Assembly (NCBI GenBank): GCA_035084275.1
Contig: CM068758.1
Coordinates: 434,001 to 498,000 of the forward strand
Length of the DNA stretch: 64,000 bases
Direction: 5' to 3'
Origin: Hydrolagus colliei
Lineage: Eukaryota
Every line of letters starts with the position of its first letter. Position 1 is the first letter of the stretch. This document shows positions 1 through 30,900 of the stretch, one piece after another. Below the pieces are notes generated by a model. The model worked only from the letters and a program-made list of their open reading frames with translations, was not told the DNA's origin and searched no databases. The position numbers were made by a program, and so were the translations under genes.

Positions 1-3000
1 TTCACTCAGCTGATTCAAGTATTGAAGTACAAGCGGGTCAAACTTGATGAAAGTCAGGTAAGACTGTTTGCTGAAATTGTACGAGAGAGAGAAATGTTTC
101 ATTGCATTTGGGTTCACTTTCCTTTGTTTATTGGTGAGTTTGAGCCAGGAGTAATTGTTATAGACAGTCCTTTGGGAATTATTACTCTGTTGTGTCAACC
201 CCTCCACAAAAGTACTCCAGGTTCTGCTGGAATTGATGTCCTCGTTCAGGTAGCCTTTAACAATTGGTTTGCTCTCTCACGTTACAGCTCAGTTGCATAT
301 TCTTTCGACTAAAATCGGATGAAATAGAGGTCGAGGTAGACGAGGTCCCGGAGGATGTTCTGCTGTATTTCAAGTAAGTATTTGTCTTTTGTACATACAA
401 CCATAAAAGGATGAGAAGTGGAAACCAATTCTGCTTCGCTGGAGACTGGTCCTCCCGTCTACTGACAGAAGGAATACTGTTTTTAAAGAATAGGCAACAT
501 ATATTTTACCCCAAAGCCTCACACCATTTAAGTATTAAAGATATATTTATATCCACTTGTTTTAGCTCTGCAGAATTCAAAACAACTCCAGAGTGCAAGA
601 AATTCTTCAAGGCTGTTGGAAAATCGAACATTAATGCCTTACCAAAGGGATTAGGAAGATACCAATTGTTGCAGAACGCTAAAACCTGCTTGGTAAGAAC
701 GGATCTTATTTGGTCTTCTGCTATGCTTTTGATTACAGAATCTGTTGTTCAATACAAAGATACTTAAATGGATTGAATTTACTGTACAGACATCATGTGG
801 AAATGGTCCAGTGACCGTTGTAACTGTTGAATTATTCTCTCATAACCTTAGGGTATTCGTGAAGGAAGTCTGACAGAAGACAATGTAGAAACATTAGGTG
901 CTTTGGTCTGTGATCTCGATGGGGCCTCTATCAAGACGTCTCATGTTTCCATTTTGGAGCAATTAAAGCATTGCGTTTCATACACTGAAAGTCAAAAGTC
1001 AGTGATTGAAGCTGTACTCAACAACAAGACAACCAGATACGGGTATGTTTGGAGCTGATTTCCTTTAGATTTCTTGGAGAACCAATATCAGCAGGGTTTC
1101 GATCTAGAGCTTGGAATAGTTCCTCTCAATCCGCTGCCTGCTGCACTTGTCATTTGCACGCATCCTAAATGGGACTCCCATTGTATTTGCTGTTTGACAA
1201 TAACCTTATTTCATTGAGACGTTGAGAGCCTTGACCTGAGTGTTAGTGTATGGCCTGGAATACTGGACAAATGACAGGGATTATTTCCTTGTAGTTTCTC
1301 CAGGAGATGAGATTTAGATTGGAAACCTCTGATTGGAGATGTGTGAATTCTAGTGAGAAACTGCGCTCAAAATACTTATTGGTGAACTTTTTGTTTGAAT
1401 ACAGTCTACCTTCATCATGGACCTCATTGTCGTTGACTGACCTTGGAAACCTACCTTTGGCTTTCACCTTCACATGGAGAAGTGTAAACTTGGTGAGTTT
1501 CAACTGGTAAAGAATTCTTTCAGATGAAGTTAAGGGTAAAAGTAACTTTCTTTTCCAAAGTATTTTGCATGCTGCTTTACACATTGGAATATGTTGTGGT
1601 AAACAGTGTTACTCTGTAAACTGGATTTGTCTGTAGTTGACGCTTTATTGGGTTAATTAATCTCTTTGAGGTACTGACTATATTCTACCTTGCAGCCTGC
1701 CTTGAAATATGCCCTCCCAAGATTTCTCAAGAGATTGAAAACTACCAACTCACCGAATGCTGTCCTGGGATTCATCAATCAGTTGAAGTTGCACGCAAAC
1801 GTTACAGAAAGTATGTCATTTTCTTACAGGATTGGTTAAAGAAATAACATTGTGTGTGTGTGTGTATATATATATACGTGTGTGCAGTGTACAAATGGAT
1901 GTTATATGTAACAAACTGTTGTGTTTGCAGCCTGTACAAATCTCAAAGCGGTCGACATTGATGAGCTAACCCCTGTTAAATATGATGCTACCCAGTTACA
2001 CAACTGTTTGAGTGATCGCGTACTGAAGAATAACATATTTGTATTGGGAACTCTGTCCTTTGATACTGCTCAGCTGCACGTTCTGAAAAACAAACTTGTT
2101 AAGGTAAAAATCCGGCTTGTAACCTTCGTAATAATAAATAATTTGAGAACCAAAGTGAGTTTTATGTTTTCCTTTGTTTAAAACTGCTCTTGATGATCCG
2201 TGTGTAAAATTATCGAGCAAATGATGCAAAACGGAGTAAATTATTATTATTCCAGCGATACAGATTGTTTTATCCTTTCCCTTCCATCACAATCGTTTCA
2301 CAATTATGCAAGAATCCTTCACAGTTGATGTAAATTTGAGTTCTAATAACTGAGTAATGCTATGATGAAGACAAATCCACACTCTTACAATAAGTGCTCG
2401 CCTGTGTGCTGGACAATAAGACCACATGTTGGGATTGAATCTGATTGTTTGGATCTCTGTGATGCAGCTTTACCCCGGTGGGATCCCAGAAGCTGCAATC
2501 CTACTGCTGGGCAACATATCTACTGTGTTCAACGCATCCCAAATGAGCAGCTGGAATATAACTCAAGTTGACACACTCGAACTAGTGCTGAGGAATCCGT
2601 TAGAGCACTTCCAGGTACTTAAACTGAGAAATGACGAGATGAGTTTGGATGGAAAGGAAAAGCCCTTTGATGCTCTGATCAGCCATGTTTGAGGAGATTG
2701 TCTAAGGGATGGATGGTGCAGCACTGATTGGTGGGGTTGGGTGTGAGGGTGGGTGTGCGTTTGGGGTTGGGGGTGGAGGTGGAGGAGGTGAAACCCAATT
2801 GGGAATCAAAGAAAGAAAAGTTGAAATGGGGCAAATGTTTGCTATTTATCTGGTGTTTCTCTGTGCAATGATAGCTGATCCGTGTTCACCTCTTACAGGT
2901 CACGACCATCATTGCAAGATTCTTGGCCTTTGATGGAAAACTGAATGGATCTGCATTGAAAGCTGTCGGTGGTGCAAACCTGTGCCTTCTGAATGAAAAC

Positions 3001-3956
3001 CAACTGAGGACAATTTCCTCCCTGGAGTAAGTGATGAAATCTTTCTGATCCACAATCAGGCAAGCAATCAGGAACTGGAGCCATGGTTGCTGTTGATGCT
3101 GTTCTTGGTGTTTGGTATTTTGGTGTATTTGGGGTGGAATGTGCAGCCAATGGAAATATTTTCCCTTTTCTCCCACAGAGATGCAGGAGCTCTAGATATT
3201 TCTTTGTGCAGTCAGTCAAAGAAGAACCTGCTTTACCAGAAAGCTGTTGTTGCTTTGAAGGCTCAGAATATTAACCCGATCCCCCAATTTCAACTGTTAA
3301 AGTCGTACATTAGTAAGTCTCGGAATATTTACCTTTCATTCTTGTCCACTTCATCCATTCGGCCTTAGTTGAGTTCACTGAGTCTTTGTCTGTAAAACAA
3401 GAAACTATTTCAATAGTTATATTAAACATTTTTTTCCTACTTTATAAACAATAATAACTTGCCTTTTTGTCAAGCCATGACTTAGGATATAGCGTATGGC
3501 GGAGCTGAAAGCGGAGGTGGTTCATATACTGTGTTAAGCTGATGGCTCTGATTTTTCCCTTCAGGTGGAGCGAGACTGGTTGATCTGCAAACTCTGGCAA
3601 ACCACACAGTCCATATGGATTTTGCAACCTTCAAGACACTGAATCCTGAAGAAGTGACGGTTGGTACATGGACAATATGTTGGCATCACTGTGGTTGGGG
3701 GGGGGGCATTTCTTTAGCTGCTTCCCTTTGTCCTTCTGTTGGTTCCCTTTGGCGACTCTATGAATGACAGAGATTTGTTAAATGTTTCTCTTTTAGAATC
3801 TGACAGCTGAGAACCTGATTGACTTACTTGGAAGTAACCTGCCTGCACTGATAACTGGATTCAATGAAACTGTTGTGATAGTTTGGGTGAATTCACACTT
3901 TGTATCTGAAGTCAGGAAAGTTGGGCTTACGGGAGGAATTCCAGATCCTCCTCTAG
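1..3956 (+). CDS. Mesothelin-like domain 1 (first exon truncated by the window)
   Basis: Exons <1-57, 288-373, 566-692, 852-1042, 1405-1492, 1696-1810, 1931-2103, 2468-2614, 2899-3026, 3179-3312, 3565-3659, 3797-3956. For example, 852-1042 encodes [43 protein letters not shown], resembling mesothelin GVRGSLLSEADVRALGGLACDLPG..YG. Confidence 0.9.
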
Positions 3957-6900
3957 GTATGTTCCTCGTCAACGGCAAATAAATCTGCACATCAATTGCG
4001 GCTTTTGAAACACTGCTCTGAGGAGGATATCCCCCTCTGATAATGTTTGCACTATTTCTGTTAGATTTGCTTTGGATTCTGTTGTGAGTGTTTCCAATAG
4101 TCATTAAATTCAGATGATTTTCTAATAAGTACATGACACTATTTTTGACAACAGATATATTTTATTAAGGATCAGATAAATGTAGTGCTCTATAGTTTTA
4201 TGTATCTTAATACTGTACTTTTCTGTTTGACTTTTCCAACAGAAACTGTTTTATGTGAAGCCAGAAATAGGTAAGTTTCTTCTGTTTCCCGCAGTGCCGT
4301 TGTCCTCACACTCAGTCCAAAGTCACAAAGACTTGGAGAAGTCTCTCTCAACAATATGGCTAGATTGGTGATTAGGCAGTGAAGCACATGGACATTACAG
4401 AATCCTGCCTCTGTTATCAGTCACAAAACCCACCTGTTTAACCGGTATCCTCTGTTTCCTTACAGTTCAGCGGTGAATGATTTCCTGATGACCCTCAACA
4501 GGACCCAACTCTGCAATGTTGCCATTATAGACTACGCATGTGCTCGGGTAAGCTGTGTTCCGCTCTAGAATTCCACACAACAGTGTCTTCCTTCACGCGG
4601 TTCATCCACAGGGAACAATGTTGTAGTCCTTCCCAACTTTCTTGGTTCCCTATACAAATGTAGTCAAATTGTTGTATCATCTCCGCCTGTCGAAATAATA
4701 CCTCTGATCGATTGTTTTCAGATAACTTAACAGTTTCCATTATTTGTCAACCGATTCCTTGCAGATTGAACTGCTGGCAAATCTATCCAGTTATGACGTG
4801 ACTGCTCTGTTTGACTGCTACACTCGCTCAAAGGCTTTGAGGGTCGCAGATGAAAAACCGCTGACTCTGTTTATTCAAAAGCTTGACAGAACCACACTTA
4901 ACCAGGCGTTGGACATGTTTAATAAAAAGGTAAGCCCTTATTGATTCCATACTGTAGGGGTACTACTGTAAACTATTAAACGCCTCCTTACTGATTCACA
5001 TTAAACTTATTGGTGTGTTTCAGACTTTAAATATGTCTTCAATTGGTCTGGAAAGCAAGACAACGTTCTTTAACGCCTTGTGGGAGAATGTGAAGCTCAA
5101 CGTGACCAGCCCTGCTCTCCTGGCCAAATGGTTTCAGCAAAGATTCAGACCATTCATTGCAGGCATTCCTCAATCAGTCCTGACTGACCTTCTGGTGAGG
5201 AATGTCACATGTGATGGATACCAAGCAGTGTAAGTCTATTGTTTTCTCTTACAATCACCTGGTGCTGGGAATTGCAGAACAATCCTGGGTATAAACAGTG
5301 ATGGAAAAGAAGGAAACATGGAACAATAAACTGACTTGTGCTGTCAATTTGTCTTCACTTAGTGTGAAAGGCCTGAGTGATGGATTTGGAGAGATGCCAC
5401 TGCCAACGAGACACACCATACTGCAAGTCTGGATCCTTAGATACCTGAACAGCACAGGTAACCTGGATCCAATCAGTATCTGTAAATCAATCATTTCTTT
5501 CACATGTCGGCAAACGCCGAGTTTGTAAACGCACAATAGATAACCTTCTTTGCCATTCATCTCCAGGTGCTGGCTGTATCAGCAACACCAATGGCTCTCG
5601 AGACTGGCTGGTGAAGAATTGGGGAACGTTCAGCAAACTGGCTGATATAAAGCATCTGTCGGACTTGAATTCCAATTTCAGCGCAGTAAGTGACTGACAC
5701 ATTTTGTTTTTTTTTGAGATGATAAGCAGCAGGAGATGCTTTGTGTTCTGAAGACATCAGTACCAACAACAACGACAAAATTACATTGATAGAGTGCCTT
5801 TCATGTCGGGAGGACGTGCCAAGGCGCTGAGATCAAAATGATGACATGAATTAAATGTTGCTTTCATTAATATTATCAAACATACCCCAAATATCTTGCT
5901 AAACATCAAGTATTGTATTTGTTTCACCGAGTAATCTCTGTCATCATTTGTGGTTACGTCAAAAAATACTTTTTCACACGGAGTCATCTTTTCTGACAGG
6001 TTGAAGCAGGGGGCTTGCTGACTGTATCACAACTTGGAGAATTTGTGGGGAGAAATGGTACCTTGAGAAATGTTTATGACGTACACAAGCTTTTCACCAT
6101 CATCACAAATGTTACCGTGACTGAATTCCTGGACAGCTTTGCCTCGGCTGCCTACAGGGTAGGAGAACTTTGTGTGTTGTTTTTAATATAACCTGTATCC
6201 GTCAAGCACACATTTGGAGTTTAGTATGTGAGCACTGAGAGACAATGGCTCTGCCCTTTTCCATGCTGTGTTTATAGTTGGTTGATGTGCTCTCTGTCTC
6301 CTGGCATTGAAGCAGTTGATTTATTCCTAAATGTTTACAGAACCACGTGAAGCTGTCCCCTAACGTCACAACAGCTTTCCTGAGGGAGGTTCTGAACCGC
6401 ACTCAGTCGATCCTTTCAAACGCAGACTATAATGAGCTCTCCATCTGGTTCAACAATAGACTGGCATTCCTCCTGCCGGGACTCACCGAACAGTTGGTGC
6501 CTTTGGTCCTGGTCACTCAGAGCTGCAAAGGATCCCAATTCATGTAAGTTTGATGCACTTTGTTTATACTCAGTGGATTGGAGTCCCAAAGTGAATTTCA
6601 TATTAAGCGTTTGTAAATTTAGTGGTAGCTTTCTGTTTCATAAATTATGTTGTACGTTGGTGACATAACCCTCTAATGCCTTGAATTTGACCTTTTATAG
6701 TGTATCTGTGCTGAGCTCCATCAAGCCACCGTTGTATTCTGATATTCAAGAAGCCATTTATGCAAAGATACTACACTTTAATAAAGGTAACAACACAGAT
6801 TTCATCCATTAGAACCTCGCAATGCAATTTAACCCAACGCAGTTCCCACCATTTGAAGTACTAAATGTTGCTGTTTGTTGGGTATTGTCAATAAGCAGGA

Positions 6901-9900
6901 ATGATGCTGTGGGCAACATTACATTGGTCATCGTTTAACCTAATCTCATTTTTGTGGCTATTTGCTTCAGCGCCTCGGGACGTCCTCCCAACATGAAAGC
7001 TGCTAATCCAGCTCAATAGAAACAACAACAACAACAACTTTGATCCACGCCGGACGGCGTCTCAGAGCGTTATTGAGTAAGACATCATTGAATAAGATGG
7101 GAGCTTGAACTGAACGTTTTTTCCACTTTCTTTCCAGAATTCCCCCTTCGGTGCTATGAAAACAACAATTTTGTTGTTTATCTGAACAACACCTTCCGAA
7201 ATTTCTCTAAACATTTGAGTTTGACGGATTTGGTCTCATTGATACCGAAGAACAGAGCAGCTCAGGTAAGAACACCAACAACAAAATGACACTTGTATAG
7301 ACGGCGCCTTTCCCGTCAGCAGGACATCCCAAGGCGCTGGACAGTCACTGTGTCAGTCCCGAGCTGGGGACAGGGTGGGGAGGGAAACGGGGGTATTAGG
7401 AGTTGCCGGTGGGACCATATTTAAGTTCAATCATTTTTTTGTCTGTTTTTCTTCCAGGTTTTGAATGCGACTGAACCCACAGATGTGGCTGATTTGCTGA
7501 GCAGACCTGAATTCATCGATGACAACAGCAATCTGACTCTGTTGTTACTGAGCTACCAATCCATCCAGAAACTAGGAATATTTGTGGACAGATTCAACCA
7601 AAACAGTCACAATGTAAGTGGCAGATGGTTTAGAACAGAACGCAGCATCTCTTCTGGGTCAGTGGCTTTAGGCCGACGTTAATAATGAGAGGTCGAAATG
7701 TTCTATTGTTCCACACGGTTGACAAACTCAGTCAATCAGGAATGTTGTAGTTGGAATGGGATTTTCTGTTCTGTGTGATTAAGAGAAGTTAAATATTAAT
7801 GTTATTCTACGTTTACAGAGTGACCTGAGAGACACCACCCTGGCTGCCATCATGGAGGGTCTGTGGCCACTGTTTGCCAGGAGCTTGTCTGAACTGAGTG
7901 ACGCCCAAGCCAAGGTGTGGCTTGATGCCAGGCTGGAACCGTATCTGCCTTTCATCAGCCAAGACCTGCTGGCTTCTCAAGACACCCTGAGAGTGAAGTG
8001 CCAACCCTACAGAACAATGTAAATACCGTGCGGGCTTTGTGTGTGGGTGGGTGCCTCTTCCACCGATAGCCAGGCTTCTCTCTCTCTCTCTCTCTCCCTT
8101 TTGCAGTGTAACGTCCGGCTTCATTTTAATTCTCTCATTCCTGCTCCCTGCGTTAGGCCGACAAACCGTCAACTCTCTCTCCGCTCAAACCCCCCCCCCC
8201 CCCGCCCCCACCGCCCTCCCCATTTATGTGGACATGTAAAACGAGTTTGGGTCAACTGCTCTTGTCAAATAATATTACCTTCTTATCTACCGTTTGGTTG
8301 TATTTAATTATTGAATGCTAAAATCTTGCAATTGTTATTTAGTGTGAAAACATTGAGTGCTGGATACAATTCTTTCGAACCAGCCAAACAGAAGGAAATC
8401 TACAATGGCATCAAAACGTACCTCCAAGAAGGTAAACGTTATTGTTATTTTGGTTAAAGTGATCGTAGTTGAGATGACAATTTGACTGTATCCATGTGTA
8501 AGGAAATTAATTTAGTGCAGCTCTGGTTGCTGGTACTTGTAAAGCTAAACCTAAAGCCAGTAAGAGATTTTGGCTGGTGCTGGTGGCGGTGAGGAAGAAA
8601 CTAGGAATCAGAATAATTTTTTAATTTGACTTTTAGATGAAAACATTAAAGACAGAGTCAAAGTGTTTGTGAAGTATTAAACACACGTTCAACATTAATT
8701 AGTAAAGTTGATTCTCAAATGAATTGAAGCCTTTGTGTAATCACACTTTTCATTCCTTTGTACAGCAGGTCCTAAACCCAAATGCTACAACGCCAGTGAC
8801 GCAGCTCTGAACTCTACTGCTTGGTTTGTTAACTACCTCGGACTATACCTGAGCCAAGTGACAGAGGCTGATCTTCTGTCTTTCTCTGATAACAAAGCAA
8901 AGGTAATTGTGAAGATAAAGTCAGCAGAAAACTTTTCTAAGTGTTTTATGCAGAAGAATAAGTTTTCAATGGCTCAATTCTCAATGCAATGCTTGACAAT
9001 TCTGCTGTTAATCAGATTATTAGCTGTTGTTGTTGGCTGTGTCAAGGAATGTATGTGTAGATCATTATATGGGTCATTCAGTTCTGGGTTGTATTTCAAT
9101 CCACCTCAACTTAATGCGATGGAAGTCACCAAATGAGATCAAAATTGTCTCTGTGGGTTGCCAACCATTTTTGAATTCCCCTTTTTCTTATTAGCCAATA
9201 TAAAGGTAACTGCTGTGGCCTGGCCAATATTGCCCCCGATTCCAAAATTCACAAAAAAAACAAAACCCTTTACATCGATTTGACAATTAACATCGCTGAT
9301 TATGAGAAGCTGCTACAAGAAATTGGCTTCCACATTTGCCCGCACACCATCCCATATTGAATATCAGACTATTTCACGAAGTGAATCATCACCGCATCAC
9401 ACCTATTGATCACTGTTCTTGGTTGAGTAAACGTTGCTAATTTCATTTCAATGTTTGTGTTTCCAGCTTCAGGAATTCGCAGCTGATCCTGACAATCTGG
9501 CATTGCTGGGAAACGTGACGTTGCCAATTGAAGTTGCGAAATTCTGCATTGCATTGGTGCTTGAAGGGAATCCGAATGTTAATATAATAAGGTATGGCAA
9601 TATATTTCCACCCAAAGATATGAAATCCAAGTTTCTGGTCGAAATCACCTGTCGATCATCGTTCAGGAGGTAGATATTCACAAGTAGAAATTGACTTAAG
9701 TTTGCCAATAAGTAGACAATGATGCCAAATGATTGGACGTTCTTAGTTTTTGATCAGTGTTACTCAAGTCACAAGGAGACACTCTAGAGAGCCATTTTGG
9801 GATGACCTTGTGGAGAGTCTCATTGGGGATCACTTAGTATCAGGGAGACCTGTTGGTCTGTCACTGACGCAGATTGCAAATACTGTTTTCCAGCCTGCCC

Positions 9901-12900
9901 GATTCTCTGATTTGCTTGATTGCTGGTACAAACGCTCTTCGGTCCGCGAATGAGCAGCAAGTCTTGGCTGTAATCCAAAAGAAAAACCAAGTGTGTCGGG
10001 TGAGCCCCAGCAACAATACAGCACGGCCTCAAGCACCTGTGACGGACGAACAACTGAAGGTAAATAGCAAAGAGCGTTTGACCACCTTGCTGCTCCAATG
10101 GGCTGTCCTTCAGCAGCCAGGTTTGATAATGTGGTCAATATGTGTCGCCTGAATAAACCTGGCACCCAATCTGTTGACTCTGAGGCTTTGAGTGAAGACA
10201 TTTGGCGAAAGGCACAGAAGTCCACGGTCATTGTTGGGAATTTTTAAACGTTTTTCAACTTGATGTATGCGTCCAGTGAAGCTTGAGGACTTACTCTGTT
10301 CTTGTTTCTACAGTTCTCCATATATTTAGTGAGCCAAATTACCAACTTCTCTGTGGTTACTCTGAATCAATTGGGGCAATCAGCTGTGGGTCTATCACTG
10401 AAGCAGATTGCAGATACCGATCGAAATAATCTTCAGCAAGCCCTGCCAAGCCTGGGGCAAGTTATGGGTTGGAATTTTGGACAAGTCCACTTGATTGTGA
10501 GGAATGTGTTGAGCAATGGCTACCAGGTAAGACTTGTATTTATATCTGAGTCCACAAAACGCAGCCTGTAATTATTGTGATTGCATGGGTTTTTATGCAA
10601 TATACGAGGCATGTTGAGTGGTGGTTAGAGCACTCACCTTCCAAGCGTGAGACCTGTGTTTCGAATCCAGGCAGGTCAAGGCAATGGCTTCCCAATGTTA
10701 GATGTCGTTTAGAGAAACCTTGAGGTGAGCACATCTCTGGGTTAAACAAACTGAATGACAGGCAGAAAGCAACAAGGGAAGCCAAATGGAAACGGTTTGG
10801 ATCAAACGATAAACCTCACGACTCAACTTTTGTTTCCCCCCCCATTACTCCTGAAAACCTTCTATTTGTTTTCTTTGTTGAAATAGATCCGAGATGAACA
10901 GACGCTGTTGAGTCTTGGAACCGTCATAGCTGGATGTCCAAGCAGACAATTCCAAAGCATTGAGCACAGACTACTCACCAATGTAACCAGAGACCCGGAG
11001 TTTGTGATCAATATTCAACAGGCCCCACAAGTTGTCCAGAGATTGATCGTTCTGAGGGTGAGTGATCATGAAATATCTGTCAGTAAGCGTCAGGAATATA
11101 AACCCAAGCCACGCCTTGTTTCCTATTGAGGATTGTATTTCTAGATTGGTTCAATCCTGCCTGCAGACAGTCATAATACTAAACAAAAAACTGCTTGCAC
11201 AGTGTGTTTTTGGTCAATTCTGTTGTGTTTAATTCCCATTCAGATATTGAATGCATCAAGTGGCAGTGCAGAAACAGTAAAGGACATTCCCCCAGGTCTA
11301 GCCAAACAGATCCCACTACTGTACCTGACCTCCTTAAACTTAGATCTTGGCCACATCAACAACAAAGAGTGGCTACCGAGTCAGGTGAGTGAATCGGCCT
11401 GTTACTTTTTTCCAAAGTAAAATAGCCGAATACAGTCCGAACGAATATTGTTGTGGTGGGTTAGTAATCCCACGTCTCTTCAATCCAAAGTTGCTCCACT
11501 GAGTTGAGAGAACCTGAAGGATAGTTGACGGCCTGAATTTAAACATTTCCAATGATTTCTCCCACAGGCCGCGGTGTTTTTTGAAAATATTGTCCGGAAG
11601 AACAAATTTTTTGACACGTAAGTAATATTTATTCAGAATCTACATATAAAAGAGGTTTAAATCTTATGTTTAAGCGCTATGTCAATGCAAGTTGTTGTTG
11701 TTCAATACGTTAAGGTAGCTCCCGAAGTTGTGATGAGCAAGGCTTTCTAAGAGTAAATGGAATGATTTCTGGTGCAGTTTGTTTCTTCCTAGAATGAAGT
11801 GAAGGGTGTGAATTAACACTGATTTGTTTGCGTAGCTTTTCACCTTCTGTGCTGCGAGGCTTCAGCTGTGGGGCAGTCAAGACCCTGAATTCTACTGACT
11901 TCACTCAGCTGATTCAAGTATTGAAGTACAAGCGGGTCAAACTTGATGAAAGTCAGGTAAGACTGTTTGCTGAAATTGTACGAGAGAGAGAAATGTTTCA
12001 TTGCATTTGGGTTCACTTTCCTTTGTTTATTGGTGAGTTTGAGCCAGGAGTAATTGTTATAGACAGTCCTTTGGGAATTATTACTCTGTTGTGTCAACCC
12101 CTCCACAAAAGTACTCCAGGTTCTGCTGGAATTGATGTCCTCGTTCAGGTAGCCTTTAACAATTGGTTTGCTCTCTCACGTTACAGCTCAGTTGCATATT
12201 CTTTCGACTAAAATCGGATGAAATAGAGGTCGAGGTAGACGAGGTCCCGGAGGATGTTCTGCTGTATTTCAAGTAAGTATTTGTCTTTTGTACATACAAC
12301 CATAAAAGGATGAGAAGTGGAAACCAATTCTGCTTCGCTGGAGACTGGTCCTCCCGTCTACTGACAGAAGGAATACTGTTTTTAAAGAATAGGCAACATA
12401 TATTTTACCCCAAAGCCTCACACCATTTAAGTATTAAAGATATATTTATATCCACTTGTTTTAGCTCTGCAGAATTCAAAACAACTCCAGAGTGCAAGAA
12501 ATTCTTCAAGGCTGTTGGAAAATCGAACATTAATGCCTTACCAAAGGGATTAGGAAGATACCAATTGTTGCAGAACGCTAAAACCTGCTTGGTAAGAACG
12601 GATCTTATTTGGTCTTCTGCTATGCTTTTGATTACAGAATCTGTTGTTCAATACAAAGATACTTAAATGGATTGAATTTACTGTACAGACATCATGTGGA
12701 AATGGTCCAGTGACCGTTGTAACTGTTGAATTATTCTCTCATAACCTTAGGGTATTCGTGAAGGAAGTCTGACAGAAGACAATGTAGAAACATTAGGTGC
12801 TTTGGTCTGTGATCTCGATGGGGCCTCTATCAAGACGTCTCATGTTTCCATTTTGGAGCAATTAAAGCATTGCGTTTCATACACTGAAAGTCAAAAGTCA

Positions 12901-18900: not shown

Positions 18901-21900
18901 GCTAATCCAGCTCAATAGAAACAACAACAACAACAACTTTGATCCACGCCGGACGGCGTCTCAGAGCGTTATTGAGTAAGACATCATTGAATAAGATGGG
19001 AGCTTGAACTGAACGTTTTTTCCACTTTCTTTCCAGAATTCCCCCTTCGGTGCTATGAAAACAACAATTTTGTTGTTTATCTGAACAACACCTTCCGAAA
19101 TTTCTCTAAACATTTGAGTTTGACGGATTTGGTCTCATTGATACCGAAGAACAGAGCAGCTCAGGTAAGAACACCAACAACAAAATGACACTTGTATAGA
19201 CGGCGCCTTTCCCGTCAGCAGGACATCCCAAGGCGCTGGACAGTCACTGTGTCAGTCCCGAGCTGGGGACAGGGTGGGGAGGGAAACGGGGGTATTAGGA
19301 GTTGCCGGTGGGACCATATTTAAGTTCAATCATTTTTTTGTCTGTTTTTCTTCCAGGTTTTGAATGCGACTGAACCCACAGATGTGGCTGATTTGCTGAG
19401 CAGACCTGAATTCATCGATGACAACAGCAATCTGACTCTGTTGTTACTGAGCTACCAATCCATCCAGAAACTAGGAATATTTGTGGACAGATTCAACCAA
19501 AACAGTCACAATGTAAGTGGCAGATGGTTTAGAACAGAACGCAGCATCTCTTCTGGGTCAGTGGCTTTAGGCCGACGTTAATAATGAGAGGTCGAAATGT
19601 TCTATTGTTCCACACGGTTGACAAACTCAGTCAATCAGGAATGTTGTAGTTGGAATGGGATTTTCTGTTCTGTGTGATTAAGAGAAGTTAAATATTAATG
19701 TTATTCTACGTTTACAGAGTGACCTGAGAGACACCACCCTGGCTGCCATCATGGAGGGTCTGTGGCCACTGTTTGCCAGGAGCTTGTCTGAACTGAGTGA
19801 CGCCCAAGCCAAGGTGTGGCTTGATGCCAGGCTGGAACCGTATCTGCCTTTCATCAGCCAAGACCTGCTGGCTTCTCAAGACACCCTGAGAGTGAAGTGC
19901 CAACCCTACAGAACAATGTAAATACCGTGCGGGCTTTGTGTGTGGGTGGGTGCCTCTTCCACCGATAGCCAGGCTTCTCTCTCTCTCTCTCTCTCCCTTT
20001 TGCAGTGTAACGTCCGGCTTCATTTTAATTCTCTCATTCCTGCTCCCTGCGTTAGGCCGACAAACCGTCAACTCTCTCTCTCCGCTCAAACCCCCCCCCC
20101 CCCGCCCCCACCGCCCTCCCCATTTATGTGGACATGTAAAACGAGTTTGGGTCAACTGCTCTTGTCAAATAATATTACCTTCTTATCTACCGTTTGGTTG
20201 TATTTAATTATTGAATGCTAAAATCTTGCAATTGTTATTTAGTGTGAAAACATTGAGTGCTGGATACAATTCTTTCGAACCAGCCAAACAGAAGGAAATC
20301 TACAATGGCATCAAAACGTACCTCCAAGAAGGTAAACGTTATTGTTATTTTGGTTAAAGTGATCGTAGTTGAGATGACAATTTGACTGTATCCATGTGTA
20401 AGGAAATTAATTTAGTGCAGCTCTGGTTGCTGGTACTTGTAAAGCTAAACCTAAAGCCAGTAAGAGATTTTGGCTGGTGCTGGTGGCGGTGAGGAAGAAA
20501 CTAGGAATCAGAATAATTTTTTAATTTGACTTTTAGATGAAAACATTAAAGACAGAGTCAAAGTGTTTGTGAAGTATTAAACACACGTTCAACATTAATT
20601 AGTAAAGTTGATTCTCAAATGAATTGAAGCCTTTGTGTAATCACACTTTTCATTCCTTTGTACAGCAGGTCCTAAACCCAAATGCTACAACGCCAGTGAC
20701 GCAGCTCTGAACTCTACTGCTTGGTTTGTTAACTACCTCGGACTATACCTGAGCCAAGTGACAGAGGCTGATCTTCTGTCTTTCTCTGATAACAAAGCAA
20801 AGGTAATTGTGAAGATAAAGTCAGCAGAAAACTTTTCTAAGTGTTTTATGCAGAAGAATAAGTTTTCAATGGCTCAATTCTCAATGCAATGCTTGACAAT
20901 TCTGCTGTTAATCAGATTATTAGCTGTTGTTGTTGGCTGTGTCAAGGAATGTATGTGTAGATCATTATATGGGTCATTCAGTTCTGGGTTGTATTTCAAT
21001 CCACCTCAACTTAATGCGATGGAAGTCACCAAATGAGATCAAAATTGTCTCTGTGGGTTGCCAACCATTTTTGAATTCCCCTTTTTCTTATTAGCCAATA
21101 TAAAGGTAACTGCTGTGGCCTGGCCAATATTGCCCCCGATTCCAAAATTCACAAAAAAAACAAAACCCTTTACATCGATTTGACAATTAACATCGCTGAT
21201 TATGAGAAGCTGCTACAAGAAATTGGCTTCCACATTTGCCCGCACACCATCCCATATTGAATATCAGACTATTTCACGAAGTGAATCATCACCGCATCAC
21301 ACCTATTGATCACTGTTCTTGGTTGAGTAAACGTTGCTAATTTCATTTCAATGTTTGTGTTTCCAGCTTCAGGAATTCGCAGCTGATCCTGACAATCTGG
21401 CATTGCTGGGAAACGTGACGTTGCCAATTGAAGTTGCGAAATTCTGCATTGCATTGGTGCTTGAAGGGAATCCGAATGTTAATATAATAAGGTATGGCAA
21501 TATATTTCCACCCAAAGATATGAAATCCAAGTTTCTGGTCGAAATCACCTGTCGATCATCGTTCAGGAGGTAGATATTCACAAGTAGAAATTGACTTAAG
21601 TTTGCCAATAAGTAGACAATGATGCCAAATGATTGGACGTTCTTAGTTTTTGATCAGTGTTACTCAAGTCACAAGGAGACACTCTAGAGAGCCATTTTGG
21701 GATGACCTTGTGGAGAGTCTCATTGGGGATCACTTAGTATCAGGGAGACCTGTTGGTCTGTCACTGACGCAGATTGCAAATACTGTTTTCCAGCCTGCCC
21801 GATTCTCTGATTTGCTTGATTGCTGGTACAAACGCTCTTCGGTCCGCGAATGAGCAGCAAGTCTTGGCTGTAATCCAAAAGAAAAACCAAGTGTGTCGGG

Positions 21901-24900
21901 TGAGCCCCAGCAACAATACAGCACGGCCTCAAGCACCTGTGACGGACGAACAACTGAAGGTAAATAGCAAAGAGCGTTTGACCACCTTGCTGCTCCAATG
22001 GGCTGTCCTTCAGCAGCCAGGTTTGATAATGTGGTCAATATGTGTCGCCTGAATAAACCTGGCACCCAATCTGTTGACTCTGAGGCTTTGAGTGAAGACA
22101 TTTGGCGAAAGGCACAGAAGTCCACGGTCATTGTTGGGAATTTTTAAACGTTTTTCAACTTGATGTATGCGTCCAGTGAAGCTTGAGGACTTACTCTGTT
22201 CTTGTTTCTACAGTTCTCCATATATTTAGTGAGCCAAATTACCAACTTCTCTGTGGTTACTCTGAATCAATTGGGGCAATCAGCTGTGGGTCTATCACTG
22301 AAGCAGATTGCAGATACCGATCGAAATAATCTTCAGCAAGCCCTGCCAAGCCTGGGGCAAGTTATGGGTTGGAATTTTGGACAAGTCCACTTGATTGTGA
22401 GGAATGTGTTGAGCAATGGCTACCAGGTAAGACTTGTATTTATATCTGAGTCCACAAAACGCAGCCTGTAATTATTGTGATTGCATGGGTTTTTATGCAA
22501 TATACGAGGCATGTTGAGTGGTGGTTAGAGCACTCACCTTCCAAGCGTGAGACCTGTGTTTCGAATCCAGGCAGGTCAAGGCAATGGCTTCCCAATGTTA
22601 GATGTCGTTTAGAGAAACCTTGAGGTGAGCACATCTCTGGGTTAAACAAACTGAATGACAGGCAGAAAGCAACAAGGGAAGCCAAATGGAAACGGTTTGG
22701 ATCAAACGATAAACCTCACGACTCAACTTTTGTTTCCCCCCCCATTACTCCTGAAAACCTTCCATTTGTTTTCTTTGTTGAAATAGATCCGAGATGAACA
22801 GACGCTGTTGAGTCTTGGAACCGTCATAGCTGGATGTCCAAGCAGACAATTCCAAAGCATTGAGCACAGACTACTCACCAATGTAACCAGAGACCCGGAG
22901 TTTGTGATCAATATTCAACAGGCCCCACAAGTTGTCCAGAGATTGATCGTTCTGAGGGTGAGTGATCATGAAATATCTGTCAGTAAGCGTCAGGAATATA
23001 AACCCAAGCCACGCCTTGTTTCCTATTGAGGATTGTATTTCTAGATTGGTTCAATTCTGCCTGCAGACAGTCATAATACTAAACAAAAAACTGCTTGCAC
23101 AGTGTGTTTTTGGTCAATTCTGTTGTGTTTAATTCCCATTCAGATATTGAATGCATCAAGTGGCAGTGCAGAAACAGTAAAGGACATTCCCCCAGGTCTA
23201 GCCAAACAGATCCCACTACTGTACCTGACCTCCTTAAACTTAGATCTTGGCCACATCAACAACAAAGAGTGGCTACCGAGTCAGGTGAGTGAATCGGCCT
23301 GTTACTTTTTTCCAAAGTAAAATAGCCGAATACAGTCCGAACGAATATTGTTGTGGTGGGTTAGTAATCCCACGTCTCTTCAATCCAAAGTTGCTCCACT
23401 GAGTTGAGAGAACCTGAAGGATAGTTGACGGCCTGAATTTAAACATTTCCAATGATTTCTCCCACAGGCCGCGGTGTTTTTTGAAAATATTGTCCGGAAG
23501 AACAAATTTTTTGACACGTAAGTAATATTTATTCAGAATCTACATATAAAAGAGGTTTAAATCTTATGTTTAAGCGCTATGTCAATGCAAGTTGTTGTTG
23601 TTCAATACGTTAAGGTAGCTCCCGAAGTTGTGATGAGCAAGGCTTTCTAAGAGTAAATGGAATGATTTCTGGTGCAGTTTGTTTCTTCCTAGAATGAAGT
23701 GAAGGGTGTGAATTAACACTGATTTGTTTGCGTAGCTTTTCACCTTCTGTGCTGCGAGGCTTCAGCTGTGGGGCAGTCAAGACCCTGAATTCTACTGACT
23801 TCACTCAGCTGATTCAAGTATTGAAGTACAAGCGGGTCAAACTTGATGAAAGTCAGGTAAGACTGTTTGCTGAAATTGTACGAGAGAGAGAAATGTTTCA
23901 TTGCATTTGGGTTCACTTTCCTTTGTTTATTGGTGAGTTTGAGCCAGGAGTAATTGTTATAGACAGTCCTTTGGGAATTATTACTCTGTTGTGTCAACCC
24001 CTCCACAAAAGTACTCCAGGTTCTGCTGGAATTGATGTCCTCGTTCAGGTAGCCTTTAACAATTGGTTTGCTCTCTCACGTTACAGCTCAGTTGCATATT
24101 CTTTCGACTAAAATCGGATGAAATAGAGGTCGAGGTAGACGAGGTCCCGGAGGATGTTCTGCTGTATTTCAAGTAAGTATTTGTCTTTTGTACATACAAC
24201 CATAAAAGGATGAGAAGTGGAAACCAATTCTGCTTCGCTGGAGACTGGTCCTCCCGTCTACTGACAGAAGGAATACTGTTTTTAAAGAATAGGCAACATA
24301 TATTTTACCCCAAAGCCTCACACCATTTAAGTATTAAAGATATATTTATATCCACTTGTTTTAGCTCTGCAGAATTCAAAACAACTCCAGAGTGCAAGAA
24401 ATTCTTCAAGGCTGTTGGAAAATCGAACATTAATGCCTTACCAAAGGGATTAGGAAGATACCAATTGTTGCAGAACGCTAAAACCTGCTTGGTAAGAACG
24501 GATCTTATTTGGTCTTCTGCTATGCTTTTGATTACAGAATCTGTTGTTCAATACAAAGATACTTAAATGGATTGAATTTACTGTACAGACATCATGTGGA
24601 AATGGTCCAGTGACCGTTGTAACTGTTGAATTATTCTCTCATAACCTTAGGGTATTCGTGAAGGAAGTCTGACAGAAGACAATGTAGAAACATTAGGTGC
24701 TTTGGTCTGTGATCTCGATGGGGCCTCTATCAAGACGTCTCATGTTTCCATTTTGGAGCAATTAAAGCATTGCGTTTCATACACTGAAAGTCAAAAGTCA
24801 GTGATTGAAGCTGTACTCAACAACAAGACAACCAGATACGGGTATGTTTGGAGCTGATTTCCTTTAGATTTCTTGGAGAACCAATATCAGCAGGGTTTCG

Positions 24901-27900
24901 ATCTAGAGCTTGGAATAGTTCCTCTCAATCCGCTGCCTGCTGCACTTGTCATTTGCACGCATCCTAAATGGGACTCCCATTGTATTTGCTGTTTGACAAT
25001 AACCTTATTTCATTGAGACGTTGAGAGCCTTGACCTGAGTGTTAGTGTATGGCCTGGAATACTGGACAAATGACAGGGATTATTTCCTTGTAGTTTCTCC
25101 AGGAGATGAGATTTAGATTGGAAACCTCTGATTGGAGATGTGTGAATTCTAGTGAGAAACTGCGCTCAAAATACTTATTGGTGAACTTTTTGTTTGAATA
25201 CAGTCTACCTTCATCATGGACCTCATTGTCGTTGACTGACCTTGGAAACCTACCTTTGGCTTTCACCTTCACATGGAGAAGTGTAAACTTGGTGAGTTTC
25301 AACTGGTAAAGAATTCTTTCAGATGAAGTTAAGGGTAAAAGTAACTTTCTTTTCCAAAGTATTTTGCATGCTGCTTTACACATTGGAATATGTTGTGGTA
25401 AACAGTGTTACTCTGTAAACTGGATTTGTCTGTAGTTGACGCTTTATTGGGTTAATTAATCTCTTTGAGGTACTGACTATATTCTACCTTGCAGCCTGCC
25501 TTGAAATATGCCCTCCCAAGATTTCTCAAGAGATTGAAAACTACCAACTCACCGAATGCTGTCCTGGGATTCATCAATCAGTTGAAGTTGCACGCAAACG
25601 TTACAGAAAGTATGTCATTTTCTTACAGGATTGGTTAAAGAAATAACATTGTGTGTGTGTGTGTATATATATATACGTGTGTGCAGTGTACAAATGGATG
25701 TTATATGTAACAAACTGTTGTGTTTGCAGCCTGTACAAATCTCAAAGCGGTCGACATTGATGAGCTAACCCCTGTTAAATATGATGCTACCCAGTTACAC
25801 AACTGTTTGAGTGATCGCGTACTGAAGAATAACATATTTGTATTGGGAACTCTGTCCTTTGATACTGCTCAGCTGCACGTTCTGAAAAACAAACTTGTTA
25901 AGGTAAAAATCCGGCTTGAAACCTTCGTAATAATAAATAATTTGAGAACCAAAGTGAGTTTTATGTTTTCCTTTGTTTAAAACTGCTCTTGATGATCCGT
26001 GTGTAAAATTATCGAGCAAATGATGCAAAACGGAGTAAATTATTATTATTCCAGCGATACAGATTGTTTTATCCTTTCCCTTCCATCACAATCGTTTCAC
26101 AATTATGCAAGAATCCTTCACAGTTGATGTAAATTTGAGTTCTAATAACTGAGTAATGCTATGATGAAGACAAATCCACACTCTTACAATAAGTGCTCGC
26201 CTGTGTGCTGGACAATAAGACCACATGTTGGGATTGAATCTGATTGTTTGGATCTCTGTGATGCAGCTTTACCCCGGTGGGATCCCAGAAGCTGCAATCC
26301 TACTGCTGGGCAACATATCTACTGTGTTCAACGCATCCCAAATGAGCAGCTGGAATATAACTCAAGTTGACACACTCGAACTAGTGCTGAGGAATCCGTT
26401 AGAGCACTTCCAGGTACTTAAACTGAGAAATGACGAGATGAGTTTGGATGGAAAGGAAAAGCCCTTTGATGCTCTGATCAGCCATGTTTGAGGAGATTGT
26501 CTAAGGGATGGATGGTGCAGCACTGATTGGTGGGGTTGGGTGTGAGGGTGGGTGTGCGTTTGGGGTTGGGGGTGGAGGTGGAGGAGGTGAAACCCAATTG
26601 GGAATCAAAGAAAGAAAAGTTGAAATGGGGCAAATGTTTGCTATTTATCTGGTGTTTCTCTGTGCAATGATAGCTGATCCGTGTTCACCTCTTACAGGTC
26701 ACGACCATCATTGCAAGATTCTTGGCCTTTGATGGAAAACTGAATGGATCTGCATTGAAAGCTGTCGGTGGTGCAAACCTGTGCCTTCTGAATGAAAACC
26801 AACTGAGGACAATTTCCTCCCTGGAGTAAGTGATGAAATCTTTCTGATCCACAATCAGGCAAGCAATCAGGAACTGGAGCCATGGTTGCTGTTGATGCTG
26901 TTCTTGGTGTTTGGTATTTTGGTGTATTTGGGGTGGAATGTGCAGCCAATGGAAATATTTTCCCTTTTCTCCCACAGAGATGCAGGAGCTCTAGATATTT
27001 CTTTGTGCAGTCAGTCAAAGAAGAACCTGCTTTACCAGAAAGCTGTTGTTGCTTTGAAGGCTCAGAATATTAACCCGATCCCCCAATTTCAACTGTTAAA
27101 GTCGTACATTAGTAAGTCTCGGAATATTTACCTTTCATTCTTGTCCACTTCATCCATTCGGCCTTAGTTGAGTTCACTGAGTCTTTGTCTGTAAAACAAG
27201 AAACTATTTCAATAGTTATATTAAACATTTTTTTCCTACTTTATAAACAATAATAACTTGCCTTTTTGTCAAGCCATGACTTAGGATATAGCGTATGGCG
27301 GAGCTGAAAGCGGAGGTGGTTCATATACTGTGTTAAGCTGATGGCTCTGATTTTTCCCTTCAGGTGGAGCGAGACTGGTTGATCTGCAAACTCTGGCAAA
27401 CCACACAGTCCATATGGATTTTGCAACCTTCAAGACACTGAATCCTGAAGAAGTGACGGTTGGTACATGGACAATATGTTGGCATCACTGTGGTTGGGGG
27501 GGGGGCATTTCTTTAGCTGCTTCCCTTTGTCCTTCTGTTGGTTCCCTTTGGCGACTCTATGAATGACAGAGATTTGTTAAATGTTTCTCTTTTAGAATCT
27601 GACAGCTGAGAACCTGATTGACTTACTTGGAAGTAACCTGCCTGCACTGATAACTGGATTCAATGAAACTGTTGTGATAGTTTGGGTGAATTCACACTTT
27701 GTATCTGAAGTCAGGAAAGTTGGGCTTACGGGAGGAATTCCAGATCCTCCTCTAGGTATGTTCCTCGTCAACGGCAAATAAATCTGCACATCAATTGCGG
27801 CTTTTGAAACACTGCTCTGAGGAGGATATCCCCCTCTGATAATGTTTGCACTATTTCTGTTAGATTTGCTTTGGATTCTGTTGTGAGTGTTTCCAATAGT

Positions 27901-30900
27901 CATTAAATTCAGATGATTTTCTAATAAGTACATGACACTATTTTTGACAACAGATATATTTTATTAAGGATCAGATAAATGTAGTGCTCTATAGTTTTAT
28001 GTATCTTAATACTGTACTTTTCTGTTTGACTTTTCCAACAGAAACTGTTTTATGTGAAGCCAGAAATAGGTAAGTTTCTTCTGTTTCCCGCAGTGCCGTT
28101 GTCCTCACACTCAGTCCAAAGTCACAAAGACTTGGAGAAGTCTCTCTCAACAATATGGCTAGATTGGTGATTAGGCAGTGAAGCACATGGACATTACAGA
28201 ATCCTGCCTCTGTTATCAGTCACAAAACCCACCTGTTTAACCGGTATCCTCTGTTTCCTTACAGTTCAGCGGTGAATGATTTCCTGATGACCCTCAACAG
28301 GACCCAACTCTGCAATGTTGCCATTATAGACTACGCATGTGCTCGGGTAAGCTGTGTTCCGCTCTAGAATTCCACACAACAGTGTCTTCCTTCACGCGGT
28401 TCATCCACAGGGAACAATGTTGTAGTCCTTCCCAACTTTCTTGGTTCCCTATACAAATGTAGTCAAATTGTTGTATCATCTCCGCCTGTCGAAATAATAC
28501 CTCTGATCGATTGTTTTCAGATAACTTAACAGTTTCCATTATTTGTCAACCGATTCCTTGCAGATTGAACTGCTGGCAAATCTATCCAGTTATGACGTGA
28601 CTGCTCTGTTTGACTGCTACACTCGCTCAAAGGCTTTGAGGGTCGCAGATGAAAAACCGCTGACTCTGTTTATTCAAAAGCTTGACAGAACCACACTTAA
28701 CCATGCGTTGGACATGTTTAATAAAAAGGTAAGCCCTTATTGATTCCATACTGTAGGGGTACTACTGTAAACTATTAAACGCCTCCTTACTGATTCACAT
28801 TAAACTTATTGGTGTGTTTCAGACTTTAAATATGTCTTCAATTGGTCTGGAAAGCAAGACAACGTTCTTTAACGCCTTGTGGGAGAATGTGAAGCTCAAC
28901 GTGACCAGCCCTGCTCTCCTGGCCAAATGGTTTCAGCAAAGATTCAGACCATTCATTGCAGGCATTCCTCAATCAGTCCTGACTGACCTTCTGGTGAGGA
29001 ATGTCACATGTGATGGATACCAAGCAGTGTAAGTCTATTGTTTTCTCTTACAATCACCTGGTGCTGGGAATTGCAGAACAATCCTGGGTATAAACAGTGA
29101 TGGAAAAGAAGGAAACATGGAACAATAAACTGACTTGTGCTGTCAATTTGTCTTCACTTAGTGTGAAAGGCCTGAGTGATGGATTTGGAGAGATGCCACT
29201 GCCAACGAGACACACCATACTGCAAGTCTGGATCCTTAGATACCTGAACAGCACAGGTAACCTGGATCCAATCAGTATCTGTAAATCAATCATTTCTTTC
29301 ACATGTCGGCAAACGCCGAGTTTGTAAACGCACAATAGATAACCTTCTTTGCCATTCATCTCCAGGTGCTGGCTGTATCAGCAACACCAATGGCTCTCGA
29401 GACTGGCTGGTGAAGAATTGGGGAACGTTCAGCAAACTGGCTGATATAAAGCATCTGTCGGACTTGAATTCCAATTTCAGCGCAGTAAGTGACTGATGCA
29501 CTTTGGGTTTTTGAAGATAATGACTGGAGGAACATGGTTTGCCTTTCTGATTTTTCAGTTGTCATTTACACAATGGCTGAAGTGGTAGGAGTGGGAGTTC
29601 ATGATTGATACCGAAAAGTAAATAAAATGAATTATATAAAGATTTCTTGAAATATTCAATTAAAGAATAATTTGAGAAGTTTGGAAAAAAAATAGTGGTT
29701 CAATTGAAGTGCTATGTGACAAGAATGAACAATGTCACTCTTTGTCTGAAGAATTTGGAATTTATAAAATATTGCTTTTGTTTCTTAGAAGTATTTGGTG
29801 TCCTGTAGCTCAGTTGTTAGAGCATTCACCTTACAAGGAAGAGACCTGGGTTCAATTCCTGGCATGTCAGGGCGAACTATTGGGCAAGTTTCCTTACTCC
29901 ACATGCCTGAAAATCCCTGAAAAGAAATTGGTCATTTCACTCCAAGACTTTTCGTTGGAATCTGCTGTGCGCTATTGGGTGCCACGTTTCGCCCACATAT
30001 ATATAATGAATTCACTTTGCAGTATATTCTGTGAAGCGCTTTGAGGCACAGTCTAGAAGATGTGAAAAGCGCTACGTATATCAAATGCAAAGGTTATTAT
30101 CATTATGAAATATAAACTTGTTGAAATAAGAAAAAAATCCTGTTGTTTAAACTTTCTCTTGGGTAGAAATTGTAGAAATAGCACAACAAATATTATTTTG
30201 CAGTCAAATAACTTTGATGGAACATTTTTTTCTCTGATAGATTGATGCAGCACAATTGTTGACTGCATCCCAACTTGGGGAGTTCACTGGAAGTAACGGA
30301 ACACTGAAAAGTGCTGGTGACGTACACAAGATTTTGAAGTACATCACAGGGGCCGCTGTTGCTGACTTTATTGATACATTCACAGATGCTGTTAACAAGG
30401 TACCAAAATCTCTTCAGTTGACTTATTTACTGGTCTATTATTGTCTTTGTTTCTGCACCCATCTTTCCCTCCCTCTCTTCCTTACCCTCCTTTCTCCCCC
30501 CTCTTCCTCCCTAACCCTAACCCATCCCACCTTTCCCTCCCTCTCCCCCCTTACCCTCTTTTCCCCCTTTCTCCCCTGGCACCATTTTTGCGATTGTTTG
30601 TGGGGACACTGCTGTGCGCAATTTGGCTGCCGCGTTTCGCCCACAAGTATACAGTCGACTTTCCTGCTTTTCTTCCCCCTGCCTCGACCCCTCCCCTTTT
30701 GCTTCTTTACCCCCTTTTGCCCCTAGTCCCACTTCCATGACTGATTGTGGGACACTGCTGTGCGCAATTTGGCTGCCACGTTTCGCCCTCTAATATACAG
30801 TTACTTTTCCTACTATTCTTCATCCTGCCCTGATCCTTCCCACCCTGCTCTTGTCCTACCTAACTGTACAGCGCCTTGGGACGTCCTCTCGACGTGAAAG

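Follow-up and report, generated by a model that had tools for sequence, protein, structure and literature searches.

The 64,000-nucleotide window of Hydrolagus colliei DNA analysed here (contig CM068758.1, positions 434,001 to 498,000) carries, on its forward (+) strand, part of a giant mesothelin-family (msln) gene in which an 11.9-kb, 32-exon unit is repeated in tandem. We consider it likely that this array is old and that unequal crossing-over and gene conversion keep its units alike.

A tandem array of 11.9-kb coding units

The sequence-only reading of this DNA had proposed a tandem 11.9-kb, 32-exon unit at about 99.9% identity, which self-BLAST and exact alignment bore out. The repeat period is 11,899–11,901 bp, and self-BLAST gave 99.898% identity between positions 1–17612 and 11900–29512 and 99.877% between 1–5713 and 23800–29512. 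Exact alignment recovered the same nine copy-to-copy differences that had been listed, comprising seven substitutions (2120, 14116, 15652, 16757, 22763, 23056 and 28704) and two indels (CT at 20072–20073 and C at 20090), and placed the last position of copy identity at 29496. The unit had also been read correctly as frame-preserving: its 32 exons, all with AG/GT ends, sum to 4,284 nt, or 1,428 codons with no stop. As supposed, the array continues left of the window, for a further 27.6 kb up to a 200-N gap, which brings the assembled total to five units, with the gap interrupting the first. Two genome searches returned four and five full-length copies of the probe, all on the same contig, and a partial copy on the unplaced contig C295.

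Within the window lie the 3′ half of unit U3 (1–6320; exons 1–17 plus the inter-unit junction that holds exon 18; unit start at −5580), the complete unit U4 (6321–18219; exons 19–32, then 1–18; 11,899 bp, 1,428 codons) and the last unit, U5 (18220–29496; exons 19–32, then 1–17), in which the homogenised tract ends 12 bases inside the intron after exon 17. Pairwise, the array units on contig C25 differ by 1–6 substitutions per 9.5–11.9 kb (0.01–0.05%, about 0.03%, or 99.97% DNA identity over five units). The substitutions are mostly private to a single unit, and U4 holds both coding differences and most of the private ones. A junction segment made up of intron 17, exon 18 (6000–6158) and intron 18 (5698–6350, with a second copy at 17597–18249) occurs exclusively at between-unit positions; global-alignment identities for intron 17 (70–77%) were gap-inflated and were discarded.

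Exons 2–11 (566–3956) encode a mesothelin module, MPF-like and then mature-mesothelin-like, as recognised by PF06060 matches on exons 2, 3, 7 and 10 and a junction alignment; RxxR is absent ahead of its mature part. Exons 14–25 (4765–8902) form three four-exon repeats of about 190–200 aa each, with conserved W and C, which are predicted to be all-helical, a prediction that leans on a model of the C. milii counterpart.

A mesothelin-family gene with diverged flanking repeats

The 5′ part of the gene is located on C295, where a signal-peptide-like start and seven further 200-aa repeats precede the array; the hydrophobic first exon (C295:9875–9941) was judged by eye and hydropathy. Two more super-repeats follow the array, their exons placed by hand with an error-prone ab initio exon finder as a guide only. 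Super-repeat Y (30241–53598; 34 exons, 1,750 aa) is diverged, being 52–56% identical to the unit, and has long SINE-bearing introns. One of its exons (42721–42844) ends in RSRR, a predicted furin site ahead of the mature module, and another (47686–48742) carries a 290-residue Pro/Ala/Thr mucin-like tract that is missing in the C. milii orthologue. The terminal super-repeat Z (1,241 aa) occupies 53741–64000 and extends past the window to about 72,070; it ends in a Ser-rich spacer and a hydrophobic tail that resembles a GPI signal by eye and hydropathy. Of 30 orthologous introns, 24 are longer in Y than in the unit (17,297 versus 7,015 bp; Wilcoxon p = 1e-6), and the intronic sequence matched by a SINE probe amounts to 58 bp in the unit, 2,120 in Y (the probe itself included) and 1,958 in Z. 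The locus offers a clean natural comparison of homogenised units with short, SINE-poor introns against adjoining paralogues with long, SINE-rich ones, with an older tract boundary visible.

Judged from its sequence, the gene is a member of the mesothelin family. PF06060 matched four of the 21 exons scanned, one of them above the cut-off (exon 3, 28 bits versus 25.8), and the sub-threshold matches on exons 2, 7 and 10 fall at collinear profile positions. A genome profile search gave eight above-cut-off matches in the gene, and orthologues score 295–1,120 bits. Pfam matches to DUF3556, TetR and CSTF1 were below cut-off and were dropped. The C. milii orthologue shares 74% identity with Y and Z, its match to solved mesothelin has an E of 5e-41, and close homologues carry the NCBI names mslna and mslnb. 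As to synteny with the neighbours of mammalian MSLN, one search for a neighbour family found none, and 145 flanking ORFs gave one weak match. A model of the C. milii terminal repeats is all-helical (pLDDT 74, pTM 0.50, three sequences); for the C. milii repeat-region model the best structural matches are HEAT/ARM proteins (Z up to 9.8, high rmsd), with mesothelin at Z 6.8. At an E limit of 0.001, Foldseek returned nothing for the repeat region, which does not imply a new fold. The full product is predicted to be an N-glycosylated, alpha-solenoid, GPI-anchored surface protein of about 11,000–11,500 aa.

Multiplicity, age and coding integrity of the array

Comparison of depth with the flanks, proposed as a check for false duplication, indicated that the multiplicity is real, with array contigs at about 4–5 times the flank (3.8–4.8x) in two runs. 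In run X1, which may be the assembled sample, contig depth was 39.8–42.2 in the flank, 141–143 at the junction and 177–183 in the unit, and in run X4 it was 59.5–60.3, 204 and 227–269, respectively, placing the junction at 3.4–3.5 times the flank, where depth is a single value per contig and is flagged as a poor measure of copy number. About 4.5 units and 3.5 junctions by depth are compatible with a 5+4 heterozygote and also with local read drop-out; each haplotype would carry four, five or more units, and the multiplicity itself is firm. Two unit-specific variants were traced in the contigs of the runs: the one at 23056 is there at low depth, and the T at 28704 is missing. That missing T, together with the start of the array at a scaffold gap and the location of its 5′ flank on an unplaced contig, would suit an assembler that multiplied one or two real units, the variants then reflecting errors or alleles. 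However, the raised unit and junction depths in both runs largely refute such an artefact, which we regard as extremely improbable.

The near-identity of the copies had been attributed either to very recent amplification or to ongoing unequal crossing-over or gene conversion. Ongoing exchange fits better and very recent amplification less well, because the junction is also present in related organisms and a diverged intron 18 and exon 18 persist in the entry copy. X7, whose contigs span exon 17 to the junction and the junction to exon 19, shows 181 differences from the window over 11,081 array bases (1.6%), and X11 shows 35 over 1,566 (2.2%). One junction contig in X11 has a depth of 258 versus 24–70 in the flank, the flank being three short contigs in X11 and one contig at 4.3 in X7. 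Every one of the 36 X11 differences used is at full depth; contig assembly loses rare variants and may overstate uniformity in X7 and X11. Copies within this array (0.01–0.05%) are closer to one another than to the collapsed contigs of these junction-bearing relatives. Two relatives diverged by about 2% thus carry the same junction at raised depth; the array is therefore not simply recent, and the pattern is indicative of concerted evolution. Just outside the homogenised tract, the entry copy is 91.7% identical to the array in intron 18 and 80.5% in exon 18. One alternative is a sudden, very recent round of tandem duplication that started from a single unit of this species, without any homogenisation before it. 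It would agree with the small number of mostly private substitutions between units, and an array-type unit is lacking among the C. milii proteins found. We consider such a burst unlikely, since a junction exclusive to between-unit positions is present at raised depth in both relatives and the entry copy preserves an older boundary (80–92% identical); if one unit of an older array had lately re-expanded, that would itself be concerted evolution by the unequal-crossover route. Less likely still, in our view, is a genuine array in a gene that is a young pseudogene or evolves under relaxed selection, copy number then having no effect on a protein. As assembled, three exons in the 5′ part on C295 are out of frame relative to four intact paralogues, the unit has a long tree branch (0.62), and residue-changing differences make up nine of the 12 exonic X11 differences, near the neutral ratio, among the 40 of 567 rows listed. 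Yet the frame faults cluster within 5 kb of C295, a contig that also has homopolymer indels relative to the array, whereas the 1,428 codons of the unit, 1,750 of Y and 1,241 of Z are free of stops. Splice sites are canonical throughout the unit and Y, the exceptions in Z being one GC donor and an unplaced first acceptor. Moreover, an uninterrupted 3,067-aa skate homologue that covers a whole unit is encoded on a 10.5-kb contig, which points to a spliced transcript in a relative.

For an old array kept uniform by exchange, misaligned unit-to-unit recombination would spread or remove variants over all copies, introns included, and gain or loss of a block would shift protein length in frame by 1,428 residues per step. 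The homogenised tract is bounded where homology breaks, at a 4.3-kb satellite/SINE insertion on the 5′ side and a diverged intron on the 3′ side.

Giant homologues and furin-type sites

Sequence comparison makes the gene orthologous to the giant msln proteins of sharks and skates. The U-Y-Z plan is common to whale shark (4,700 aa), zebra shark (7,881 aa) and skate (7,628 aa), and, among 115 homologues of at least 900 aa, 44 (from sharks, teleosts and amphibians) contain long near-identical internal repeats, with periods that include 1,261, 1,403 and 1,627 aa. Many annotated giant msln proteins, which are database predictions titled 'uncharacterized', have lineage-specific near-identical internal repeats as in H. 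colliei. The repeat-plus-module plan is alike in zebra shark XP_059510198, whale shark XP_048465576, Amblyraja XP_032896963, axolotl XP_069503376 (6,351 aa), sea bass mslnb XP_051242506 and C. milii XP_007904336. Shark units are about 90% alike, compared with 99.97% at the DNA level over the five units here. In a module tree, terminal modules cluster by position across chimaeras and sharks, while five distal shark modules cluster together, separate from the chimaera unit. A one-exon, word-indexed search over proteins of 112–2,000 aa, a type of search that misses giants, gave no match.

The furin-type sites of the H. colliei gene are the RSRR of Y and RVSR in Z, with none in the amplified unit. 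Across related species, in counts that are not independent, RxxR precedes the mature part in eight of 10 last modules, seven of 10 second-last modules and none of nine more distal ones; axolotl has a near-site, KSKR, in one of nine distal modules. Because furin-type sites are limited to the two membrane-proximal modules, the amplified units would remain within a single shed piece, and copy number would determine how long that piece is.

Discussion

The mechanism is already known from NEB, TTN, CR1 and LPA, as are coding copy-number arrays of 10–18 kb. According to the sources cited here, the NEB triplicate region (eight exons three times, about 30 kb) and the TTN segmental duplication (nine exons three times) vary in copy number (PMC9109913, PMC9142044); both are in-frame tandem near-identical multi-exon blocks within a giant gene, but here the 11.9-kb block has 32 exons and 1,428 aa, in four to five copies, and the protein is predicted to be extracellular. 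CR1, with an intragenic 18-kb repeat and isoforms of 220, 250 and 280 kDa, likewise ties the ectodomain length of a surface protein to an intragenic repeat, although its step is about 30 kDa of sushi domains, compared with about 155 kDa here, where a helical solenoid is predicted (PMC3265835). The LPA KIV-2 VNTR shares a homogenised exon-plus-intron unit flanked by diverged paralogous units, but its unit is 5.6 kb with two exons in many copies, against 16 times the exons in few copies here (PMC11201333). Spidroin genes have homogenised repetitive introns with short, low-complexity units, unlike this complex 32-exon unit (PMC9779670). Among the arrays compared, as far as these sources describe them, the coding step here exceeds those of NEB, TTN, LPA and CR1. 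The human mesothelin precursor has 622 aa and one module (PMC10035497, PMC2628672); it has a homologous MPF-plus-mature module, an RxxR in the same place as in Y and Z, and a GPI-like tail and ARM/HEAT-like helical fold, both of which are predicted here. The chimaera gene differs in having at least seven modules spaced by 200-aa repeats, the amplified ones without a cleavage motif. Among the literature matches listed, which included few subscription journals, we found neither a giant or repeated fish msln nor an equal step size.

Tentatively, msln in cartilaginous and bony fishes and amphibians may be a giant, length-tunable surface coat, in which each lineage repeatedly re-amplifies and homogenises its uncleavable distal units and furin frees them as one megadalton piece. 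This chimaera would then segregate alleles differing by 155-kDa blocks, and mammalian mesothelin/MPF would be a one-module remnant. The array itself accounts for broken or collapsed msln genes in assemblies. If the coat model is true, the coat would be a mucin-like spacer built from a folded helical solenoid, not from disordered PTS chains. Mesothelin, known as a small mammalian cancer antigen, is a member of a family that is giant and repeatedly re-homogenised in non-amniote vertebrates; its reading as a one-module remnant would offer a fresh handle on the unclear normal role of mammalian mesothelin/MPF.

A frame-preserving array in a giant mesothelin-family gene

Self-BLAST of the window (G000:C25:434001-498000 of the 1.0-Gb genome) delimited a tandem repeat with a period of 11,899-11,900 bp ending at window position 29,496, and the copies within the window differ by seven substitutions and two small indels, the latter in simple repeats. 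These are the same nine differences that the sequence-only reading had listed by eye, and the unit it described, of 32 exons and 1,428 residues in a preserved frame, also held up: with exons positioned manually, all 32 have AG/GT ends and sum to 4,284 nt, or 1,428 codons with zero stops. Two differences between copies are coding, at unit residues 550 and 565. As had been proposed, the array continues leftward, reaching window position -27,646, where it abuts a 200-N gap; five units are assembled, the first one partial. The 5' part of the gene lies on C295, an unplaced 40-kb contig that extends 3.5 kb into the array and whose final 1.7 kb overlaps the array start on C25 with no substitution and two indels. 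This overlap would allow exactly five units on the assembled haplotype, without proving that number. Three repeat exons on C295 (L014; 14070-14277, 15436-15639 and 18531-18734) are out of frame relative to four intact paralogues; all fall within 5 kb of that contig and are probably errors rather than real lesions.

Each unit is built from a single mesothelin module together with about three repeats, each spanning four exons and 190-200 aa, and Pfam Mesothelin matches were found at collinear positions on 4 of the 21 exons scanned. Two diverged super-repeats follow the array. Y, of 1,750 aa, shares 52-56% identity with the unit and includes a mucin-like Pro/Ala/Thr exon; Z, of 1,241 aa, shares 34% and terminates in a GPI-like tail 8 kb past the window end. 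On C295, a signal-peptide-like first exon is followed by seven further repeats. By summation, the whole predicted protein has about 11,500 aa and about 250 exons, its 5' share (about 1,500 aa) being a rough figure. Y and Z share 74% identity with proteins of Callorhinchus milii, which makes another holocephalan the likely source; the C. milii protein matches solved mesothelin at E 5e-41, and its repeat region is all-helical in a predicted model (pLDDT 74), with weak HEAT/ARM-type matches.

Several further features were observed at the locus. Within exon 11 of Y, window positions 47837-48701 hold a repeat of 18-21 nt that keeps the frame and encodes a mucin-like PATATTT tract of about 290 residues; the tract is not present in C. 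milii and is likely a second, smaller coding VNTR. At 38920-39580, in intron 31 of Y, lies a GC-rich insertion whose ends are inverted and whose core is GA-rich; it looks like a non-autonomous DNA element. Relative to the unit, Z has an additional repeat ahead of exon 18 and lacks exons 20-23 (53741-56270), a pattern that records older gain and loss at the repeat level; its exon 29 is followed by one GC-AG intron donor (61499-61669). About 200 kb upstream, two small mesothelin-like genes (L022-L024; C25:192.7-195.3 kb and 206.2-211.3 kb) match mature-module exons only. Synteny with mammalian MSLN, sought around the locus, was not established.

Copy number and age of the array

To weigh false duplication, we compared depth with the flanks on contigs from four public runs, aligned to window 16,500-36,400. 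Depths are contig means, which the tool flags as unsafe to read as copy number. In X1, which may be the assembled sample, the four flank contigs stood at 39.8-42.2, the junction (the intron 17/exon 18/intron 18 segment found only between units) at 141-143 and the unit at 177-183, with a SINE-free unit bin up to 193; in X4 the values were 59.5-60.3, 204 and 227-269. False duplication predicts a ratio of 1, whereas the junction gave 3.4-3.5 and the unit 3.8-4.8, which argues for a real array. The half-integer ratios fit a heterozygote with 5+4 units, and 5+5 with read drop-out fits too, since within the unit depth climbs with distance from the C295 satellite. Support for the two displayed unit-specific variants was divided: that at 23056 formed a separate low-depth contig in both runs, while that at 28704 was absent from the contigs, which lose rare variants.

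The sequence-only reading had taken the near-identity of the copies to imply very recent amplification or ongoing crossing-over or conversion. Near-identity stands, the copies differing by 0.01-0.05%, but a merely recent origin is less likely, as the junction is present in two related organisms whose arrays differ from the window by 1.6% (X7, 181/11,081) and 2.2% (X11, organism B, 35/1,566). X7 contigs span both sides of the junction at depth 10-13, against 4.3 on a single flank contig, and junction depth in X11 is 258 against 24-70 on the flank. The displayed X7 and X11 differences are at full depth, as expected if common to all copies, although collapsed contigs may mask variation. On these comparisons, the array is probably old and not merely new. 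Among exonic differences from X11, 9 of 12 change the residue (from 36 differences, 40 being listed of 567 and four dropped because they fell beyond the span or on the branch point), and the unit may therefore evolve fast or loosely.

From offset 6,351 onward the entry copy on C295 matches the array exactly, homopolymers aside, while directly upstream identity falls to 91.7% in intron 18 and 80.5% in exon 18. Between this diverged segment, which we infer to be an older tract boundary, and the homogenised tract lies a stretch of about 4.3 kb made up of satellite and SINE. Intron 18 of the entry copy (L016:2580-5100) holds about 2.5 kb of C/T-rich satellite, then three 62-bp tandem copies and SINEs; this stretch marks the 5' end of homogenisation and may be the reason for the contig break. 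Unit introns are 2.5-fold shorter than their Y counterparts (24/30 shorter, p=1e-6) and half the length of those in Z (18/20, p=0.001), and the local SINE is almost missing from them. Homogenisation may purge insertions, or compact units may recombine more easily.

A shared plan among relatives

The unit/Y/Z plan is common to whale shark (4,700 aa), zebra shark (7,881 aa) and thorny skate (7,628 aa). When 14 modules were placed in a tree, terminal modules from chimaeras and sharks clustered according to position, the five distal shark modules made up a separate clade, and the chimaera unit sat on a long branch of uncertain placement. At E<=0.001, a profile of the 200-aa repeat matched 282 clusters, of which 150 were listed; ten top hits included teleosts (mslnb), frogs, axolotl, skates (mslna) and a shark. 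Most homologues are gene predictions; a 10.5-kb skate contig carries a continuous 3,067-aa homologue, 51% identical over the whole unit, indicating a spliced transcript in a relative. Long near-identical internal repeats occur in 44 of 115 retrieved proteins of at least 900 aa, the spacing usually being a multiple of about 200 aa; the longest periods are 1,627 aa (axolotl) and 1,403 aa (P0032, 99.3%). P0032, a 3,171-aa homologue only 29% identical to the H. colliei unit, represents an independent same-scale array in a distant lineage.

In-frame intragenic arrays of variable copy number are already described for NEB, TTN, CR1 and LPA KIV-2 (PMC9109913, PMC9142044, PMC3265835, PMC11201333), and spidroins likewise have homogenised introns (PMC9779670), so the array mechanism is not new. 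NEB repeats 8 exons three times (about 30 kb) and TTN 9 exons three times, against 32 exons here; the CR1 repeat of 18 kb gives steps of about 30 kDa, against 1,428 aa, and that of LPA KIV-2 is 5.6 kb, against 11.9 kb. Giant mesothelin-type proteins are present in databases as uncharacterised entries; the 32-exon/1,428-aa step, the giant plan and the cleavage-site pattern had no match among the papers listed by the literature searches.

Predicted cleavage

Human mesothelin is described as a 622-aa GPI-anchored precursor from which furin cleavage yields MPF and a helical solenoid (PMC10035497; PMC2628672 for the fold). Thin hints of tissue come from two sources, one placing mslna among genes up in louse-infested salmon skin (PMC12339338), the other listing a mesothelin-like protein in a proteomics table for catshark semen (PMC11083954). 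An RxxR motif lies ahead of the mature module in both Y and Z, but not in the unit, which carries 34 N-glycosylation motifs. Among ten C-terminally complete multi-module homologues, RxxR occurs in the last module in 8/10, the second-last in 7/10 and more distal ones in 0/9, counts that come from related species and are thus non-independent, one distal module having KSKR. With RxxR in Y and Z and none in the unit, predicted furin cleavage at Y would free the N-terminus and all units as a single glycosylated piece, whose length would grow with unit copy number.
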